Shown in pieces: positions 25,071 through 63,265 of a stretch of DNA of 64,000 bases (its first letter is position 1; each line of letters opens with the position of its first letter). The stretch comes from Vulcanimicrobiales bacterium (GTDB lineage Bacteria; Vulcanimicrobiota; Vulcanimicrobiia; Vulcanimicrobiales; Vulcanimicrobiaceae): the NCBI GenBank assembly GCA_038231455.1, contig JBBRLI010000007.1:87657-151656 (forward strand), given 5' to 3'. A program made the translations under genes and the position numbers. Under the pieces are notes generated by a model that had not been told where the DNA came from, made no database searches, and was given only the letters and a program-made list of their open reading frames with translations.

Positions 25071-25850
25071 ATGCTCCAGTTCCGCCGACTCGCCGGCGCG
25101 GCCGCCGCCGCTCTCTTGATGTGCGCGCCGCTTGTCGCACGGGCCGATGATGGGCTCACCTCCAGCGGCTCGATCGTGATCCAAGCCGTGCTCTCCGGTC
25201 AGAAAATCAACGTTGGAAGCCCGATTGCGCTGTTGCGTTCGGGCTCGAGTTATCGTTTGGACGTCACGCAACTCGCGCCGGTCGGCGTCGACCCGACTGT
25301 GGCCGCGTTCCTTGCAGGCGCCCTACCGATTCATTCGTTCACGTTCATGTATGACGGAGCGACCGGCACCACGAGCGCGTACTCGAACGACAACCACACG
25401 TACTATCAGGAAACAAAGAAAGCATCCGGCACGACCGCTACCCCCGCACCCGCCGCACCGACAAACGGCGGCGATCCGCTCTCGCTCATCGCAATGTACG
25501 GCCGCATGCTGCGCGATGACAAAACGTTTTCGGCGACGCTGGATCTTGCCGGGCACGGCACGACCAACGGCCATCCCGCAACGAACGTGAACTTCGAATT
25601 CAAACAGCAGAAAACGGCCGGTGCGTTACAAGACTACCGCGCGCATCTCGCTCTCGCCGACGATCTCGACGGCTTTCCCATACAAATCGCGCTCGATTCG
25701 GTCGGCGTAAAATCGTCCGACTTCGCCGGTGCCTTGCGTCTGGATCTGACCAACGTGCAGCGTGCGGCTCCGCCGAGCGGTTCGTTTGCGATTCCAAGCG
25801 GATTCACGCGCGTGACGAGCCTCCAAGAAATTCTTCGTCCCGCTCACTAA
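25071..25850 (+). CDS. Secreted hypothetical protein
   Basis: Signal peptide ending ARA; C-terminal 'FAIPSGFTRV' typical of DUF4412/LolA-like beta proteins (weak). Confidence 0.7.
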   Translation: MLQFRRLAGAAAAALLMCAPLVARADDGLTSSGSIVIQAVLSGQKINVGSPIALLRSGSSYRLDVTQLAPVGVDPTVAAFLAGALPIHSFTFMYDGATGTTSAYSNDNHTYYQETKKASGTTATPAPAAPTNGGDPLSLIAMYGRMLRDDKTFSATLDLAGHGTTNGHPATNVNFEFKQQKTAGALQDYRAHLALADDLDGFPIQIALDSVGVKSSDFAGALRLDLTNVQRAAPPSGSFAIPSGFTRVTSLQEILRPAH

Positions 25851-27091
25851 CGGCACGGGTCGGGTACGCCTTGTAAGGCCGCGATACGCGTGCCGTACGA
25901 TGGGCGCGCGCCAAAATATATCCGTGCGGAACGCGGGAAACACAACTGCCGCGCACCGTCATCGACGATCCGCACGAGCGCTCGTATGCCGCCGGCGCGA
26001 TCGTGCGTCAGCGCGAGCGCGGCAATGTCGGCGCGCGTCGTCACCTCACGCGAATATGCATTATAGACCGGATAGAGCGCAAGACAGAACACACCAAGAA
26101 ACGCGGCGACAAGCGAGAGCCGGACGAGCGGATCGTCGTCGCGTCGGAATCCGATGCGGTCGCTTGCAAGAACCGCGAGTGCCGCCGCAACGGCAAGCAA
26201 AAACGTGCCGATGCACGTGCGCCGAAACGAATCCGCGGCCTCCGAGAGACTCTCGGCGATCAAATAGGCGATTTCATCGTCGCTCGCAACGGAGAGCAGC
26301 GAATCGGGCAACAGCACGCGCGTCGTCGGACCGAGGCCCTCGACGGCCGGTTCGTCGATCGTACGGCGCTGCGCGCTTGCCGTAACGACGATCGGTGTCG
26401 TGGTTTTCATCGTGGCTTCGATCGCGACGATACGCGCCCGAAGCGTGCGCGTTTGCAGCGCGCGTTCCGGTCCGAAAAACGGATCGAGGACGACTGGCCG
26501 CATCGCAGCGCCGAGCGATGCGAGGACAAAGAGACCGAAAAAGACCGCGACATACCACAGATGCGTTCGATCGACGAGTGCGAGCACGATCGCGACGAGC
26601 AATCCGACAACGATCATTCCGACGATCGTTCCGACGGAAAAATCGATCAGCCACGAGCCGATGTGCTGCTCCGTCAGGCCGACGTTGAACAGCAGACGAT
26701 AGGACGCAAATGAAAACGGTAGCCCCGCAAGCGCTCCCGTCAGCGCCAACAGTGCGCCGAAGAACAAGCGCTGGAGCGCAAGCATTCGCGTTCGGCGGCG
26801 CAGCCAATTGCGAATCCGCGCGGCATTCCCCGAACGCCACAGCCACGCAAAAGCAAGCACTTGCGCGATCGCCCATGCGAAAAAGAGCGGCCGCCGGATC
26901 CCGGTAATCGCGCGCGCTGCATGCTGACGGTTCACGTTCACAAGATGCACGACGCTCTGCGTGAGCAGCGTACGGTCGCTCATCGCCGAGACGTGGTGGT
27001 CGATCGCAACCGGCGTCGCCGCAAGCGTAGGAGCCGCTCCGAACAAGAGAAGAAAAAGCACCGTTAGCCAGGCGCAGGTGCGCCCGACCAA
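25847..27091 (-). CDS. M48 (Ste24/HtpX)-like membrane protein lacking Zn ligands
   Basis: Ste24-like TM layout and GLGPTTRVLLPDSLL...EIAYLIAESLSE where HExxH is expected; start position uncertain (TTG 27091). Confidence 0.75.
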   Translation of the reverse strand: MVGRTCAWLTVLFLLLFGAAPTLAATPVAIDHHVSAMSDRTLLTQSVVHLVNVNRQHAARAITGIRRPLFFAWAIAQVLAFAWLWRSGNAARIRNWLRRRTRMLALQRLFFGALLALTGALAGLPFSFASYRLLFNVGLTEQHIGSWLIDFSVGTIVGMIVVGLLVAIVLALVDRTHLWYVAVFFGLFVLASLGAAMRPVVLDPFFGPERALQTRTLRARIVAIEATMKTTTPIVVTASAQRRTIDEPAVEGLGPTTRVLLPDSLLSVASDDEIAYLIAESLSEAADSFRRTCIGTFLLAVAAALAVLASDRIGFRRDDDPLVRLSLVAAFLGVFCLALYPVYNAYSREVTTRADIAALALTHDRAGGIRALVRIVDDGARQLCFPRSARIYFGARPSYGTRIAALQGVPDPCR

Positions 27092-27107
27092 CCGTGCTTT
27101 TGTGGAC

Positions 27108-27611
27108 CTAACCGAGTTTACGCAGTTCGTCGAAAATCTGCTCTTCGTCGGGTTGCTCAGCGATGTCGTGGACATCGATGTAGCGGATGATACCTTGTTT
27201 GTCGATGATGAAGATCGCCCGTTCCGACATGCCTTCGGCACGCAGGACGCCGTATTTCTTTGCGACTTCGCCATGCGGCCAGAAATCGCTCAGTAACGGA
27301 TAGGTGATCTCTCCGAGGGTTTTCGCCCACGCGCGATTCGCGTGCTGGCTGTCGATCGAGATGCCCACAACTTGGGCATCATAGCCTTCGAAACGTTCGA
27401 GGTTCTCCTCGTACGAAGGCATTTGGCTGGCTCAAACGGCGGTAAATGCGAACGGGTAAAACGCGAGGACGACGTTTTTGCCTTTGAGGCTCGAGAGCTT
27501 CCACTTGTCTTGCGAGTTGTGGCTGCCAAGCTCGATCTCCGGCGCAACGTCACCGATCTTGAGCGTTGACGTCGAATTTGAAGTCGACGCGCGCCCTTTG
27601 GTGATGGCCAT
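27108..27611 (-). CDS. Selenocysteine-containing peroxiredoxin (AhpE-like), 167 aa, Sec at codon 60 (TGA 27434-27432)
   Basis: ATG 27611 with AGGAG RBS; continuous frame ...KIGDVAPE...VVLAFYPFAFTAV-TGA-ASQMPSY...LLSDFWPHGEVA...SERAIFIIDK. The TGA occupies the peroxidatic position of PxxxTxxC. Confidence 0.92.
27384..27420 (-). promoter_or_regulatory. Putative SECIS element of the peroxiredoxin
   Basis: Begins 11 nt after UGA: GCCUUCG-UA-CGAGG-AGAA-CCUCG-AACGUUU-CGAAGGC. Confidence 0.7.
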
Positions 27612-27730
27612 TCTAGTGAGATTCTCCTGGGTTCGGTCAGAGTGGGAATATCCCGACTCGCCTCATTGTTCGCAAATCCCCAGAGATGATGCTGGGAATC
27701 GCGTATGCGGCGGTCGGAATGCTTTTGGTG

Positions 27731-28399
27731 TTACGCGATCGTTCGAATCGAACCGGGTTCGATCGGATCGAGGACGGCGTTGAGCGCGGCGAGGAGTGTT
27801 TTGCGCTGCTCGGTCACATCGTTTGGCCCGCCCATCGGCGTCCCGATGCTGTGGTGGATCGGGTGAACGGCGCGCGGCGGACGCGCCGACGCCGTTTGCG
27901 CCGGTTCGACGGTGATGAGGATCGTCGGAATTCCGGCGGCTTCGATGGCTCGTTGGACATGCACGACCGTGCGATGACAGAGCGGTCAACCGCCGGTCAA
28001 GAGGACGAGATCCGTCGCGCTTCGTTCGATCTTCTTGGCGATTTCGGGACCGGTTTCGTCGAGCACTTGTTTCATCTTGAGCGTGTAGCCCATCATGCCG
28101 AAGAACTCGGTGTTCAGCCCTTTGATCGTCCCGTCGGCGACGAGTTCGCGCAGACGTTCGATCGGGAAGACCACATTGATATCCCGATCCGCTGCCGTGT
28201 GATCGTAGTGCGTGTGGGTTACCATCAGGTCGGCGACGCTTGTATCAGATGGAATGACGCGATACGAGCCGTCACCGTCCACGTTATACGGTTCTTGCGT
28301 CTTGAGATGCACACCGGCCGTCGACACGAGAGCGATCGTCGTGTCGCTCAGGTCGCGTTCAAACGGCGTATAGGGGATGGCGCGGCGGGCGAGTTCCAT
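27731..28399 (-). CDS. PrdB/GrdB-family selenoprotein, 222 aa, Sec at codon 138 (TGA 27988-27986)
   Basis: IALVSTAGVH, HYDH...DRDINVVFPIERLREL, then LVLLTGG-TGA-PLCHRTVVHVQRAIEAAGIPT in one frame. This is the UxxCH motif of D-proline reductase PrdB; joins ORF-track fragments 27986..28570 and 27731..27964. Confidence 0.92.
27958..27976 (-). promoter_or_regulatory. Putative SECIS element of the PrdB-like gene
   Basis: Begins 9 nt after UGA: CAU-C-GCAC-GGUC-GUGC-AUG, a small G-leading apical loop with a bulged C. Confidence 0.7.
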
Positions 28400-28403
28400 A
28401 CGG

Positions 28404-29024
28404 CTACATCGGACCCGGCGAAGGCGAGGAGCGTTGCAGCTCGGACGGAGTTGGTTCCGACGCGGGCTGCATTGCAGGTTCCGCGCCTGCGAGGTTTCCG
28501 ACAGCGGCGCTCGGAACGGCTTTCCAAACCGCCTCGGCCGTCGGCGGCAGTTTATCCATCCGCTTGACAAACGCGGCGATCTGCCAGCGCTGCGTGTCGT
28601 CGAGCGTTTTTGAGAATGCGGGCATCGCAGTGAAGCGGATGCCGTGCGTCACCTTGAAGTACGTCACGTTTTCCGGATCGTCAACAACGCTGCCGTCTTT
28701 CGTCGCGAGCATCGGCGATTCGACCGCGAAGCCTTGCGCGAGCAGCGACGGTTTGCCGTTTTCTGCGCCGTGACAGACGGCGCAATTTGCGCCGTAGAGT
28801 TTGACACCCGCGACGAGATCCGCATCCGTCGGTTTGAGCGGGCTCGCGAGCCCGGCGGCATCGCGATTGATCGACTTGTGCAGGCTTCGCACCGCAAGAT
28901 TTTTTTCGAGGGCACCCGGCGGCACGTCGGCGCGCGCCGGAACGTAACCGTTTGAAGCGGCATAGTAGCCGCCGGCGACAAGCGCGATGATCGCAACGAA
29001 GAAGCCGAAGAAGAAATTACGCAT
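28404..29024 (-). CDS. Membrane-anchored monoheme cytochrome c
   Basis: N-terminal TM, CAVCH heme motif and GIRFTAMPAF distal Met; abuts thyX and ends 4 bp before the PrdB-like start. Confidence 0.9.
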   Translation of the reverse strand: MRNFFFGFFVAIIALVAGGYYAASNGYVPARADVPPGALEKNLAVRSLHKSINRDAAGLASPLKPTDADLVAGVKLYGANCAVCHGAENGKPSLLAQGFAVESPMLATKDGSVVDDPENVTYFKVTHGIRFTAMPAFSKTLDDTQRWQIAAFVKRMDKLPPTAEAVWKAVPSAAVGNLAGAEPAMQPASEPTPSELQRSSPSPGPM

Positions 29025-29870
29025 TTACGATGTTGCCGCCGTTTGGTGATCTGCAATGATTTCGGTACTCGAGCGTTCCGGGCCGTTTTCGTCGATCGTC
29101 GCGCGCCGTTTTGCAGCGATGGGATTTGCAACGAGGATGTAGCGCGGGCATTCGGGACCGTTGGGTTCATTACAGTACCCGCGAACGCAACTCGCACCCG
29201 CGCGAATAAACAACGTCGGAGCCGCTTTTTTCGCAAGTCGCAACATCGCAAAGCCGAGTTCGCGAATCTCCCACTGCGCGTTATTGCACGTGCGCAGCGT
29301 GAAGAAGTCCAGCAGCGCGCGAGCATTTGCCGTAATGACGATCTGCGTCTCGGCTGCGTTCGGAAGCGCAAACCGGGCGTCTTCCGGCGGCGTCCCCGCC
29401 GCGAGCGCTTCCTGGTAAAAATCGGCGATCTGCGCCATGAGCACGTCGTACTTCGCCTTGATTTCCGGCCGCGCCGCAATCGAGGGGGGCGTGATGAAAT
29501 CGAACTGGCCTTTGACCTTAATGTAACGCTGGCTCTTCTGCTCGTACGACATGTGCCGGTGCCGGACCAGTTGGTGGGTGAGTGCCCGCGAGACACCGGC
29601 GACGCCGAAGGTGAACATCGTATGCTCGAACGTCGAGAGATGGCCCGCGTCCCGAACGCGTGAGACCATTTTTTTGACTTCGTCGTCGGTCCAGTTCTCG
29701 TCGATCGATTCGATATCGCGCGGGCTATAGCAGTTTCGAGCTGCCGTCGCGACGGCTTTTTCGGGTTCGGGGCTATGCGAGAGCAGGACGACTTTGAGCG
29801 CCAAGCGATCCTCCGGCCGGACTTTGAGAAGCGAAGTGGATTCGCCCGGCGACGGCCCATTCTTCTTCAT
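29025..29870 (-). CDS. thyX: FAD-dependent thymidylate synthase
   Basis: GHLSTFEH, RHRHMSYEQKSQRY (RHRx7S), EDARFALP and AQWEIR motifs. Confidence 0.96.
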   Translation of the reverse strand: MKKNGPSPGESTSLLKVRPEDRLALKVVLLSHSPEPEKAVATAARNCYSPRDIESIDENWTDDEVKKMVSRVRDAGHLSTFEHTMFTFGVAGVSRALTHQLVRHRHMSYEQKSQRYIKVKGQFDFITPPSIAARPEIKAKYDVLMAQIADFYQEALAAGTPPEDARFALPNAAETQIVITANARALLDFFTLRTCNNAQWEIRELGFAMLRLAKKAAPTLFIRAGASCVRGYCNEPNGPECPRYILVANPIAAKRRATIDENGPERSSTEIIADHQTAATS

Positions 29871-29984
29871 GGAGCCGCGGCGCGGAAAGCGTAATCTTTA
29901 CGGCCCGCCCCTAGCACCCTAGTGTGCCTTTGGTTACAATTTTGAAAGAAACGGGGCGGTCTGCCCGGTTTTTTTGGGGGATTC

Positions 29985-31325
29985 ATGGTACGCCGTACTA
30001 GCGCGCTGGTGTTTCTTTTTCTCCTCGCCGGATGTTCCGGCGGGGGCGGCGGCGCTGCGTCAACATATGTACCCGCGCCGGTCGCGCCTCCAATTGCGCC
30101 CCCGCGCACGCTCCAGTCGACGTTCAAACACGTCATCATGATCGTTCAAGAAAACCGCTCGGTCGACAACCTCTTTAATGGCTTCCCGGGCGCGGATACC
30201 GTCCCGTACGGCATCAACCACACGGGCGCCAAAGTCCCGCTCGTGCCGATCGGGCTTGGCGCCGGCGGCGATGTCGACCACAGCCATCGCGGTTGGCTCC
30301 GACAGTACAACAAAGGCAAGATGAACGGCTTCGATGCGACGACGAGCGGCACGTTCTTCCCGAACGTCCCCGAACATCCGGCCCCCGCGTATGGCATGGT
30401 TCCCCGAAGCGAATCGGCGCCGTACTGGGACATGGCCTCGCAATACACGTTTTCCGATCGATTCTTCCAAAGCAACAGTGGACCGAGCTTCCCCGCGCAT
30501 TTGTATTTGATCGCCGGCGGATCGAAACTGGTCGCCGAAAACCCGACCGACTCCAAATGGAACTGCAATTCGACTGCAGGCGCAACGGCCGACGTGTTGG
30601 ACTCGGTGAATACCGAGCTGTATACCGGCGCGACCAAACCGTGTAGCGAGGCGCAAACGCTCGGTGACGAACTCGATACCGCCAATCTTTCCTGGCGTTA
30701 TTACGCGCCGACCAGCGATGCGACGTCCACCGGCGGAATCTGGTCGGCTTATGCCAGTATTCCGCACATTCGCTTCGGCGCCGATTGGGCGAGGAACGTC
30801 ATCACCCCGGAAACGACCGTTCTCGACGATATCGCTGCAAAACGTCTCCCGACCGTCAGTTGGGTCGTGCCGAATTTTTCGAACAGCGATCATGCGGGCT
30901 TCGGCAGTTCGACCGGACCCGATTGGGTCGCAGCGGTCGTCAACGCCGTTGGGACGAGCGCGTACTGGCAAGATACGGCGATCTTCGTCACCTGGGATGA
31001 CTGGGGCGGCTGGTACGATCACGTGGCCCCGCCGCAGCTCGACTCGATGGGACTTGGCTTCCGCGTACCGATGATTGCGATCTCCGCCTATTCGCGCGCC
31101 CAATACGTCTCGCACACGCAGTACGAATTCGGAAGCCTCCTACGCTTTATTGAGGAAGACTTCCATCTGCCGACGCTCAGTAGTTCCGATGCGCGCGCCG
31201 CGACGCCGATCGAGCTCTTCAATTTCGCTGCGCCGGCGCGCGCTTTCGTCCCGATTGCAACGACGCATTCCGCGCAGTACTTCCGGCGCGAACAGGCCCG
31301 CGTAAATCGCGCGCCCGACGACTAA
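29985..31325 (+). CDS. Phosphoesterase/phospholipase C (AcpA-like) lipoprotein, copy 1
   Basis: Lipobox LAGC; HVIMIVQENRSVDN, GPSFPAH, TWDDWGGWYDHV and GFRVP motifs. Confidence 0.9.
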   Translation: MVRRTSALVFLFLLAGCSGGGGGAASTYVPAPVAPPIAPPRTLQSTFKHVIMIVQENRSVDNLFNGFPGADTVPYGINHTGAKVPLVPIGLGAGGDVDHSHRGWLRQYNKGKMNGFDATTSGTFFPNVPEHPAPAYGMVPRSESAPYWDMASQYTFSDRFFQSNSGPSFPAHLYLIAGGSKLVAENPTDSKWNCNSTAGATADVLDSVNTELYTGATKPCSEAQTLGDELDTANLSWRYYAPTSDATSTGGIWSAYASIPHIRFGADWARNVITPETTVLDDIAAKRLPTVSWVVPNFSNSDHAGFGSSTGPDWVAAVVNAVGTSAYWQDTAIFVTWDDWGGWYDHVAPPQLDSMGLGFRVPMIAISAYSRAQYVSHTQYEFGSLLRFIEEDFHLPTLSSSDARAATPIELFNFAAPARAFVPIATTHSAQYFRREQARVNRAPDD

Positions 31326-31409: not shown

Positions 31410-32750
31410 ATGAAACGGACGGGACGGTTTATCTTTCTCCTCACCGCAACGACGGCGGTGATGTCCGCCTGTGGCGGTGGCGGCGGCTCGACTTCGCCGA
31501 TGTCGCTGCCCAGTGTGATGCCGAGCACACCGGCGCGTCCACCCGTATCAGCAAGCTCCGTTATCAAACATGTCGTTATCATCGTGCAAGAAAATCGTTC
31601 GTTCGATAACCTCTTCAACGGATTTCCGGGAGCCGATACGGCGCAAGGCGGCACGACGTCGACCGGCGCGTACATTCCGCTCGCGACGGTCGGCCTCGAA
31701 GACGGCGCCGATCCCAATCATCGCCGGTCGGATTTCGTTAATTCGTTTGATGGCGGCAAGATGGACGGCTTCGATAAAGTCGGCGTCTTCGGACCGTCGC
31801 GACCCTCCACGTACGTCTACGCAAAAGTGCCGCAAAGCGAAGTTCAACCGTATTGGGATTACGCGAAGAATTACGGTATCGCGGACCGGATGTTCCAATC
31901 ATCGACGAGCGCGAGTTTCACGCAACATCAATATCTGATTGCCGGCCAATCCGCTGGGTTGACCGATGTTCCCTCGGCATTGCCTTGGGGATGCGACGCA
32001 CCGGCCGGCACGACGACCGTCACCATCAACCCCGACGGATCGCTCGGCACCGGACCCTTTCCGTGCTTCTCGTATAAGACGATCGCCGACTCCCTCGATG
32101 CCAAAGGCATCTCCTGGGGCTATTATGCACCGGCGGTTAGCAGCGGCGATGTCGCCGGAAATATCTGGAGTGCGTTCGATGCGATTTCACCGGTGCGCTT
32201 CGGCGCCGACTGGACGCGCAACATCCATTCACCCGAAACGAACGTCCTGGGCGATATCACCGGCGGAACGTTGCCGAGCGTTTCGATCGTCATACCGGAT
32301 TCCGCGAATTCGGATCACGCGCGCTTTAGCGCCGTAAACGGCCCGGCTTGGGTAAGTTCGATCGTGAGTGCGGTCGGCAATTCGAAATACTGGAACGATA
32401 CGGCGATCTTCGTAACGTGGGACGACTGGGGCGGCTGGTACGATCACGTTCCGCCGATTGCGATCGATGCGGAGGGACCGGGAATGCGCGTCCCGCTTCT
32501 GGCGATCTCGCCGTATGCAAAACACGGCTATATCTCGCACACGATTTACGAAACGGCCAGCCTCACGCGCTTCGTTGAAGATGTCTTCGGCCTGGGAAAT
32601 ATGGGCCAGCGCGATGCAACCGCGCACAGTCCTGTCGATATGTTCGACTTCACGCAGACGGTGAAGCCGCTCGCTGCGGTTCGCACGACGAAGTCTATTC
32701 GCGACTTCCAGATGCAGCGTCCCTCCGGACTCGCACCCGACACGGACTAA
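31410..32750 (+). CDS. Phosphoesterase/phospholipase C (AcpA-like) lipoprotein, copy 2
   Basis: Lipobox MSAC; HVVIIVQENRSFDN, TWDDWGGWYDHV and GMRVP motifs. Confidence 0.9.
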   Translation: MKRTGRFIFLLTATTAVMSACGGGGGSTSPMSLPSVMPSTPARPPVSASSVIKHVVIIVQENRSFDNLFNGFPGADTAQGGTTSTGAYIPLATVGLEDGADPNHRRSDFVNSFDGGKMDGFDKVGVFGPSRPSTYVYAKVPQSEVQPYWDYAKNYGIADRMFQSSTSASFTQHQYLIAGQSAGLTDVPSALPWGCDAPAGTTTVTINPDGSLGTGPFPCFSYKTIADSLDAKGISWGYYAPAVSSGDVAGNIWSAFDAISPVRFGADWTRNIHSPETNVLGDITGGTLPSVSIVIPDSANSDHARFSAVNGPAWVSSIVSAVGNSKYWNDTAIFVTWDDWGGWYDHVPPIAIDAEGPGMRVPLLAISPYAKHGYISHTIYETASLTRFVEDVFGLGNMGQRDATAHSPVDMFDFTQTVKPLAAVRTTKSIRDFQMQRPSGLAPDTD

Positions 32751-62221: not shown

Positions 62222-63265
62222 ATGCAGTCCCCCGAGCGCGTGCGCCTGACAGAACTCGCGTCTGGCGCGGGTTGAGCGAGTAAAGTCGGCGCTGCCGACC
62301 TGGCGCAGGTTCTGCGCCGCTTGCCACCCGTAACGGACCCCAACGTTCTGGTCGGGATCGCCACGAGCGACGACGCCGGAGTTTACCGCCTCTCCGACGA
62401 TCTGGCACTGGTTCAGACCGTCGATTTCTTCACGCCCATCGTCGACGATCCGTACGACTTCGGACGCATCGCGGCGGCAAACAGTCTCTCCGACATTTAC
62501 GCGATGGGCGCAAAGCCGCTCACCGCGCTCAACATCGCGACGTTCCCGGTCGGCGACCTCGATCTTGAGATCCTCGCCCGCATTCTCGAGGGGGGCGCGG
62601 CGGTGGCAAAAGAGGCCGGCATCGTCATTTTGGGCGGCCATACGGTCAAAGACCCGGAGCCTAAATATGGCATGGCCGTGACGGGAACAATTCACCCCGA
62701 TCGGATCGTTACCAATGCGGGAGCCCGTCCCGGTGACTCCCTGATTCTGACCAAGCCCCTCGGGACGGGTATCCTTTCCACCGCCCTCAAACGCGGCCTG
62801 ATCGATGATGCGGGGATCGCCTCGGCCGTCGGTTGGATGGCGCGGCTGAATGCGAAGGCTTCCGCGGCGATGATCGCCGTCGGCGTGCACGCGGCGACCG
62901 ATGTCACCGGCTTTGGCTTACTCGGCCACGCCAGCGAGATGGCTCACGGGTCGGGTGTGCGGATCGAACTGCGCGCATCGCGCGTGCCGTTTCACGACCG
63001 CGCAATTGAATTCATCGAAAGCGGATGCGTTCCAGGCGGAACGCGCGACAATGCCATCGAGCATGCGAAATTCACGTCATACGATGCGGACGTTTCACCA
63101 TCGATTCGCCTGGGACTCTCCGATGCAACGACGTCGGGCGGACTGCTCATCGCTTGCGGCGCCGACGTCACAGAACACCTCGTGAAGACGCTGCTAGCAG
63201 GCGGCGACCTCGCCGCGATTATCGGCACGGTGGAAAGCGGCTCGGGAATTCACGTCAAGTCGTAA
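62222..63265 (+). CDS. selD: Selenophosphate synthetase, Sec-containing (TGA 62273-62275); alternative start 62216
   Basis: MQSPERVRLTELASGAG-TGA-ASKVG continues in frame to DDAGVY, TVDFFTPIVDDP, GGHT, TDVTGFGLLGH and TSGGLL. Confidence 0.96.
62285..62299 (+). promoter_or_regulatory. Putative SECIS element of selD
   Basis: Begins 9 nt after UGA: GUCGGC-GCU-GCCGAC; a second hairpin ACCUG-GCG-CAGGU follows. Confidence 0.6.

Follow-up and report, generated by a model that had tools for sequence, protein, structure and literature searches.

The clostridial D-proline reductase contains PrdB, a 26-kDa selenoprotein. Among the peroxiredoxins, M. tuberculosis AhpE (Rv2238c) has a peroxidatic Cys and is reduced by mycoredoxin-1/mycothiol. 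Other peroxiredoxins have dedicated reductants, as in the AhpC/AhpF and AhpC/AhpD systems and the peroxiredoxin-glutaredoxin hybrids, where a peroxidase and a recycling CxxC-type protein are co-encoded or fused. Selenocysteine (Sec, U) takes the peroxidatic position in the family whose prototype is PrxU of Eubacterium acidaminophilum, listed as 'Prx, TxxU' in prokaryotic selenoproteome surveys. The locus described here lies in a 64,000-nucleotide (nt) stretch of DNA (the window, G000:C7:87657-151656) from a metagenome-assembled genome of the Eremiobacterota/Vulcanimicrobiota (3.7 Mb, 93.7% complete). In it the gene of a PrdB-like selenoprotein is directly followed by that of an AhpE-like Sec peroxiredoxin (Prx). 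The two genes form a deeply conserved pair, and we lean to the reading that the PrdB-like protein recycles the Prx.

The window protein resembles PrdB in fold family, size, the U-x-x-C column, an amino acid (aa) identity of 39–42% and its position in a sister clade. It differs in that it falls under the TIGR04483 cut-off, its genome has no PrdA/GrdE, and its gene is linked to Prx. The N-terminal 'GLQSEIFVPITP' extension of PrdB is absent from the window protein, and PrdB displays SHGGYD and MGGGG where the window-type protein displays THxHYD and MGYT. The Prx shares PxAFTxxC/U and LLSDFWPHG with AhpE, and the resolving Cys is absent in both. However, the peroxidatic Cys of AhpE is a Sec in the window Prx, and the candidate reductant is the PrdB-like protein of the neighbouring gene. 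With PrxU the Prx has in common the Sec at the peroxidatic position in T-x-x-U, but it is a Cys-free member of the AhpE-like subfamily and scores 74.1 bits against NF040737 (PrxU), far under the cut-off of 270, and thus is not the PrxU equivalog. The AhpC/AhpF, AhpC/AhpD and peroxiredoxin-glutaredoxin systems are similar in plan; unlike their recycling proteins, the candidate reductant here is Rossmann-like, with neither a thioredoxin nor an AhpD fold, and uses Sec.

The features of the pair, in window coordinates, are the following.

27731..28399, minus strand: PrdB-like selenoprotein, 222 aa (TIGR04483, 196.8 bits; PF07355, 42.6 bits), with U138-P-L-C141
27986..27988, minus strand: predicted Sec codon TGA of the PrdB-like gene, U138 in GG-U-PL-C; the column is Cys in full-length homologs
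27958..27976, minus strand: SECIS-like hairpin of the PrdB-like gene (SECIS, selenocysteine insertion sequence), stem GCAC/GUGC with a GGUC loop, 13 nt past the U of UGA
27108..27611, minus strand: AhpE-like peroxiredoxin (Prx), 167 aa (PF00578, 119 bits), U60 at the peroxidatic site, no Cys
27432..27434, minus strand: predicted Sec codon TGA of the Prx gene, U60 in PFAFTAV-U; the column is the peroxidatic Cys of AhpE
27384..27420, minus strand: SECIS element of the Prx gene, an outer 7-bp helix around a 5-bp hairpin, beginning 15 nt past the U of UGA

The two selenoproteins

Both genes carry an in-frame TGA that aligns with a Cys of homologs, the reading frame is conserved beyond it, and the Pfam and NCBIfam matches continue through both TGAs. 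Homologs show Cys or TGA at the two columns. The PrdB-like orthologs all carry TGA at the U138 column, and 63 complete related gene pairs have no in-frame stop other than a TGA aligned with these columns (50/63 PrdB-like genes, 51/63 Prx genes). The selA, selB and selC genes, on which the original prediction depended, are all encoded in the genome: selA neighbours selB on contig 28, there is one tRNA-Sec(tca), and a Sec-type selD with one TGA is found inside the window. Judged from the homolog columns and this machinery, both TGAs are predicted Sec codons, one at the UxxC motif of the PrdB-like protein and one at the peroxidatic site of the Prx, as had been proposed. It had also been proposed that standard gene callers split both selenoproteins; this is seen for the PrdB-like gene, whose public call (P0004) is a 137-aa fragment stopping at the TGA.

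SECIS-like hairpins had been proposed for both genes, and of these the Prx element is the better supported. Its folding energy is low relative to shuffles (z = −2.55, 2/200). Across 52 genes its pairing is kept in 82% of cells, with compensatory changes, vs 31–50% in slid controls, a comparison biased in favour of the tested structures, since these had been traced by eye on the sequence of the window. Two-sided changes occur in 5 of its 12 pairs, and the covariation score is reached by 0/500 shuffles. The hairpin of the PrdB-like gene is present, but its stability does not exceed that of shuffles (z = +1.18 and −0.02); its sequence is invariant in 13 Eremiobacterota genes and barely covaries. 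RNAalifold gave no consensus structure on either SECIS region, and Rfam and tRNA scans of the window gave no matches.

The score of the PrdB-like protein against TIGR04483 is below the cut-off of 300, and the cluster that holds C. difficile PrdB scores 411–413. The match to PF07355 (GRDB superfamily) is above the gathering threshold of 22 and covers model positions 214–345 of 347 only. A search of the 93.7%-complete genome gave no match to the PrdA/GrdE pyruvoyl-subunit family (PF09338) at E ≤ 0.1 and none to GrdA (PF04723). The description of this PrdB-like protein as an orphan thus holds for prdA and grdE, and the protein is probably not a proline or glycine reductase.

In a quick maximum-likelihood tree, with a careful search unfinished and long branches flagged, 64 Prx-linked sequences cluster in a single group (SH-aLRT 90) together with three others of unknown context. 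True PrdB is the sister of this group (83), and two other PrdB-like paralogs of the genome fall outside. The tree includes one paralog row from an unpublished genome (G020), on which no claim depends. The two paralogs are themselves orphan selenoprotein genes, on contig 14 (L014/L027) and contig 6 (L015/L033), and are 33–36% identical to the window copy. They carry one TGA each, with the UxxC motifs UPIC and UPMC. One is beside a tadA-like deaminase gene, the other beside genes of a TetR-type regulator and an EamA transporter, and neither adjoins a Prx gene.

The U/CxxC motif is invariant in 64/64 PrdB-like sequences, and H62, Y65, D66, N75, R143, R150, E153 and R176 are invariant or near-invariant core residues of the same set. 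An AlphaFold2 model from these 64 sequences (pLDDT 94.6) places U138 at the N-terminus of helix 139–154, following strand 131–135, a predicted position that a redox-active CxxC typically occupies. A Foldseek search of the PDB with the model returned no match at E ≤ 0.001. VIA-align gave generic Rossmann-like matches only, the best with Z = 9.0, and a profile search of PDB sequences with the PrdB-like protein yielded a spurious repeat-protein match only.

The Prx has no Cys in its 167 residues, and neither have 12/12 Eremiobacterota orthologs. Its best solved relative is AhpE (E-value = 4e-28, residues 15–161). It displays the AhpC/TSA domain and the PxxxTxxC(U) motif (PFAFTAVU) and has no resolving Cys, as is characteristic of AhpE-like 1-Cys peroxiredoxins; the assignment as a Cys-free AhpE-type Sec-peroxiredoxin is therefore borne out by Cys count and family match. 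Relatives of the Prx fused to DsbA/thioredoxin-like CxxC domains occur, and thus this type of peroxiredoxin recruits CxxC partners.

Most Sec-Prx sequences outside Eremiobacterota have one extra Cys in DSVPCN, where the window Prx has DSQHAN, and most of the PrdB-like proteins there have an extra Cys at position 7 (SRKCVPFTP vs RRAIPYTP in the window). The window lineage has lost both, so that U60, U138 and C141 are the sole redox residues of the pair. In G023 (L038/L049) the Prx ortholog, at L049:5746-6245, matches in two frames (residues 1–70 and 53–167) and is either frameshifted or mis-assembled.

Linkage of the pair and its possible roles

Eremiobacterota-type loci with flanks number 14 (the window, 12 genome loci and metagenome locus L056), and in all 14 the PrdB-like gene is directly followed by the Prx gene. 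An adjacent pair is also present in 7/7 loci of relatives, which partly overlap the 12 genome loci. A diverse alignment of PrdB-like sequences was used to find metagenome loci, and the best 80 of these include 79 from outside Eremiobacterota. Their PrdB-like proteins show 48–55% identity (L056 75%), and the Prx found with them is AhpE-like with 44–64% identity (L056 73%). In 58/80 of these loci the Prx gene is at most 400 bp from the PrdB-like gene and in 8 more it is 0.7–2.8 kb away; of the 14 loci with no Prx gene, 8 have a flank shorter than 500 bp where the Prx gene usually is. Prx precedes the PrdB-like gene on the same strand in 52 of the 58 adjacent loci, five loci are convergent, and one shows the PrdB-like gene before Prx, the order found in all Eremiobacterota genome loci.

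When the open reading frames of 92 loci were clustered, no third gene proved to be conserved; the cluster next in frequency is GreA (14/92). Judged from these neighbourhoods, the conserved functional unit appears to be the two-gene Prx/PrdB-like pair, not a five-gene module. The original prediction implied co-conservation of five genes; the pair is conserved far beyond the lineage, but thyX, the cytochrome c gene and the M48 homolog are not.

Adjacency without functional coupling, by shared descent only or by co-regulation of selenoprotein genes with selenium supply, is very improbable. The loci are related, so that counts are not independent, and 40 of 56 scored pairs are Sec/Sec, as co-regulation by selenium would have it. 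But nine Cys/Cys pairs are linked too, and the linkage is thus independent of Sec. The pair also persists at about 50% protein identity and in three arrangements while all other neighbours change.

We consider it somewhat probable, from sequence and gene context, that the U/CxxC PrdB-like protein is the dedicated resolving reductant of the one-Sec Prx. The U60 selenolate of the Prx would reduce a hydroperoxide and become a selenenic acid. Because it has no second Cys, the Prx would be unable to resolve itself. The U138 selenolate of the PrdB-like protein would then attack the selenenic acid to give an intermolecular Se-Se bond, and C141 would resolve this bond, leaving an internal selenenylsulfide in the PrdB-like protein. 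The selenenylsulfide would in turn be reduced by a general dithiol system, of which thioredoxin/thioredoxin reductase is the most likely; such a closing reductant exists, since TrxB is encoded in the genome (402.6 bits). Of the PrdB reaction the PrdB-like protein would thus retain the second half, in which Se-S is formed and reduced again, with a selenenic acid as the electrophile in place of a pyruvoyl-bound amino acid. We infer that the two proteins make direct contact, and likewise which way electrons flow and what the final reductant is. A complex prediction with natural Cys/Cys homologs (9 rows per alignment) gave a score of 0.00, which counts neither for nor against binding.

Several observations weigh against the PrdB-like protein as the reductant. 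Its fold is a generic Rossmann-like alpha/beta sandwich and not a thioredoxin fold. In six of the 80 metagenome loci the upstream flank is 900 bp or longer and yet shows no Prx gene. Among 41 related genomes a Prx ortholog (at least 64% identity) is found in 12 and a PrdB-like ortholog (at least 67%) in 8. Four of the 12 genomes have the Prx without the PrdB-like ortholog (G008, G011 and G014 with TGA, G018 with Cys), and thus the Prx can work with another reductant and does not depend on the PrdB-like protein. In G014 (L136) and G011 (L139) the order is thyX-Prx(Sec)-M48 with nothing between thyX and Prx, which indicates gain or loss of the PrdB-like gene exactly at the thyX/Prx junction. No fusion of the two proteins was found among the longer relatives of either, which consist of one 394-aa PrdB-like protein without a second domain and 12 long Prx relatives, none with PF07355. 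The Sec-to-Sec relay of the original prediction fares accordingly: the co-conservation of the pair fits a Sec-to-Sec or Cys-to-Cys relay, but the four genomes with Prx alone speak against an obligate one.

The Sec/Cys state agrees in 49 of the 56 scored pairs (UU 40, CC 9, mixed 7), in loci that are related. As proof of contact this co-variation was rejected as weak; it may just follow the Sec trait of the host.

The asymmetry between the two genes, the PrdB-like gene being nearly always beside Prx and not the converse, also tells against the reductant reading in that it suits the main rival equally. In this rival explanation, which we regard as unlikely, the PrdB-like protein is a reductase acting on a non-proline substrate or with an unrecognised partner, and the Prx protects its oxidation-prone selenol. 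A guarding role has reportedly been suggested for the Sec-peroxiredoxin next to glycine reductase in Eubacterium acidaminophilum. The sister-group relation of the Prx-linked clade to true PrdB, and the many core residues of the family that it retains in addition to U/CxxC, are consistent with a reductase, but the genome has neither PrdA/GrdE nor GrdA, and there is no third conserved gene as a possible partner. The PrdB-like protein, at only 222 aa, is also without the substrate-binding N-terminal half of GrdB. Guarding would explain why a PrdB-like gene nearly always has an adjoining Prx and why Prx is found alone in four related genomes; however, a general guard need not be a Prx without a resolving residue. 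The two further orphan PrdB-like selenoproteins of the genome, away from any Prx, indicate that the fold has other uses and are in line with the guarded enzyme.

A Fur-family (PerR-like) regulator is found divergently upstream of the pair in 8 non-Eremiobacterota loci, with a second, Cys-type AhpC/TSA peroxiredoxin on the same side (L074, L076, L088, L096, L114, L120, L124 and L128). Such neighbours suggest a stress setting and speak for the reductant reading. Yeast thiol peroxidases relay oxidation to transcription factors, and by analogy the Prx could hand oxidation to the PrdB-like protein as a signal, the oxidised form then acting on a downstream target. The close association between peroxidase and U/CxxC protein and the adjoining regulator are consistent with such a redox sensor, as is the membrane M48 homolog behind the pair in Eremiobacterota, whose protease motif decays in some lineages. 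But the PrdB-like protein has no DNA-binding or signalling domain, no conserved third gene could receive the signal, and Sec in both proteins suggests high-turnover catalysis. We therefore regard signalling as distinctly improbable, and dedicated recycling of the Prx by the PrdB-like protein remains the reading we favour.

Genes around the pair

In the window the pair is part of a run of five minus-strand genes with intergenic gaps of 0, 4, 119 and 16 bp, in agreement with the five co-directional genes and the spacing first described. The other members of the run, and selD, are the following.

29025..29870, minus strand: thyX (FAD-dependent thymidylate synthase; PF02511, 222 bits; TIGR02170, 182 bits), heading the co-directional run
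28404..29024, minus strand: membrane-anchored mono-heme cytochrome c (PF13442, 48 bits) with a CAVCH site, the N-terminal hydrophobic anchor read from the sequence
25847..27091 (TTG start), minus strand: M48-family membrane protein (PF01435, 40.2 bits; PF16491, 36 bits), with AESLS replacing HEXXH
About 62243..63265, plus strand: selD (selenophosphate synthetase; TIGR00476, 385.5 bits), one TGA in frame; belongs to the Sec trait and is outside the locus

Of the 14 Eremiobacterota-type loci, 8 have thyX upstream of the pair, whereas it is absent from this position in all 79 others. Counting also the four Prx-only loci, thyX is upstream of Prx in 10/18, two of these without a PrdB-like gene. The cytochrome c gene is present at 3 of the 14 loci, and the 79 others show one weak match 2 kb off (L080). 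Adjacency of both thyX and cytochrome c is limited to one family-level clade. The M48 homolog follows Prx in 12/14 Eremiobacterota-type loci and in none of the 79 others. In an alignment of 13 M48 sequences that includes the window, the HEXXH motif is kept in 5 (HEMGH, HEIGH or HELAH). The window AESLS stands where sister lineages have HEMGH, and the homolog is predicted to be inactive as a zinc protease, as had been suggested.

The original prediction tied all five genes into a candidate selenium redox module, possibly coupled to ThyX-generated H2O2 and to the membrane cytochrome. With thyX, cytochrome c and the PrdB-like gene spaced by 0 and 4 bp, their co-transcription is likely here, and the position of thyX upstream of Prx in over half of the Eremiobacterota-type loci is in keeping with a module. 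But thyX and cytochrome c are each present in only a part of the Eremiobacterota-type loci and are confined to that one clade, and the other 79 loci have neither, save the weak L080 match. In addition, the anchor of the cytochrome c puts its heme outside the cytoplasm, and both selenoproteins are without a signal peptide as read from their sequences; direct electron exchange with the cytochrome c is therefore unlikely. Because thyX is present in 8/14 related and 0/79 other loci, the link to ThyX oxidase activity has no comparative support. The full module is accordingly a highly improbable reading. The thyX, cytochrome c and M48 genes appear to be neighbours acquired within Eremiobacterota and outside the conserved mechanism, as judged from their distribution, and may be co-transcribed with the pair in the window.

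A scan for sigma-70-like promoters over 25500..30300 gave no sites and is uninformative for this phylum. On the minus strand at 27063..27092 a 13-pair terminator-like hairpin with a T-run begins a single base ahead of the TTG that presumably starts the M48 homolog. This hairpin may be a real terminator behind the Prx gene or a by-product of T-rich signal-anchor coding sequence. Divergent from thyX, on the plus strand at 29985..31325 and 31410..32750, are tandem paralogous phosphoesterase-family genes (PF04185) of 446 aa each with lipoprotein-like N-termini.

Described families and meaning of the pair

Both families have been in selenoproteome catalogues since 2005, the PrdB-like family as 'proline reductase PrdB' (PMC1088965, PMC2398784, PMC1794560, PMC1976440, PMC9312934, PMC13188914). 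JGI and NCBI annotation also name the family proline reductase PrdB. The Sargasso Sea survey gives 42 'proline reductase' genes vs 43 Prx genes, and the GOS survey 235 vs 253. In the table of a 2006 survey, Anaeromyxobacter dehalogenans, a cultivable organism, is entered with Sec peroxiredoxins and a 'proline reductase'. Full-text searches, with subscription journals and supplements outside their coverage, gave no description of the pair, and the operon section of a 2026 review does not name it. The word 'undescribed' in the original prediction thus seems right for the pairing but not for the two families. The window locus itself is distinguished by an inverted gene order, a fully Cys-free Prx, loss of the PrdB-like gene in sister genomes, and a lineage-specific context of thyX, cytochrome c and M48 genes.

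In metagenomes of ocean and soil, stand-alone 'PrdB' ranks with the most abundant families of selenoproteins, and the label 'proline reductase' implies a Stickland-type amino acid fermentation in organisms without PrdA. The proposal that the stand-alone 'PrdB' selenoproteins are a new class of peroxiredoxin reductase without a thioredoxin fold, which with the AhpE-like Sec-Prx forms a Se-Se peroxide relay with no described counterpart, could as readily hold as fail. If the PrdB-like protein is the Prx reductant, a widespread annotation would be wrong. How 1-Cys AhpE-type peroxiredoxins are recycled outside mycobacteria, long an open question, would also gain a testable answer, and because natural Cys/Cys pairs exist (9 loci), the relay could be tested without Sec expression. 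The pair would then provide a two-selenoprotein relay in which to ask why both partners use Sec in place of Cys.

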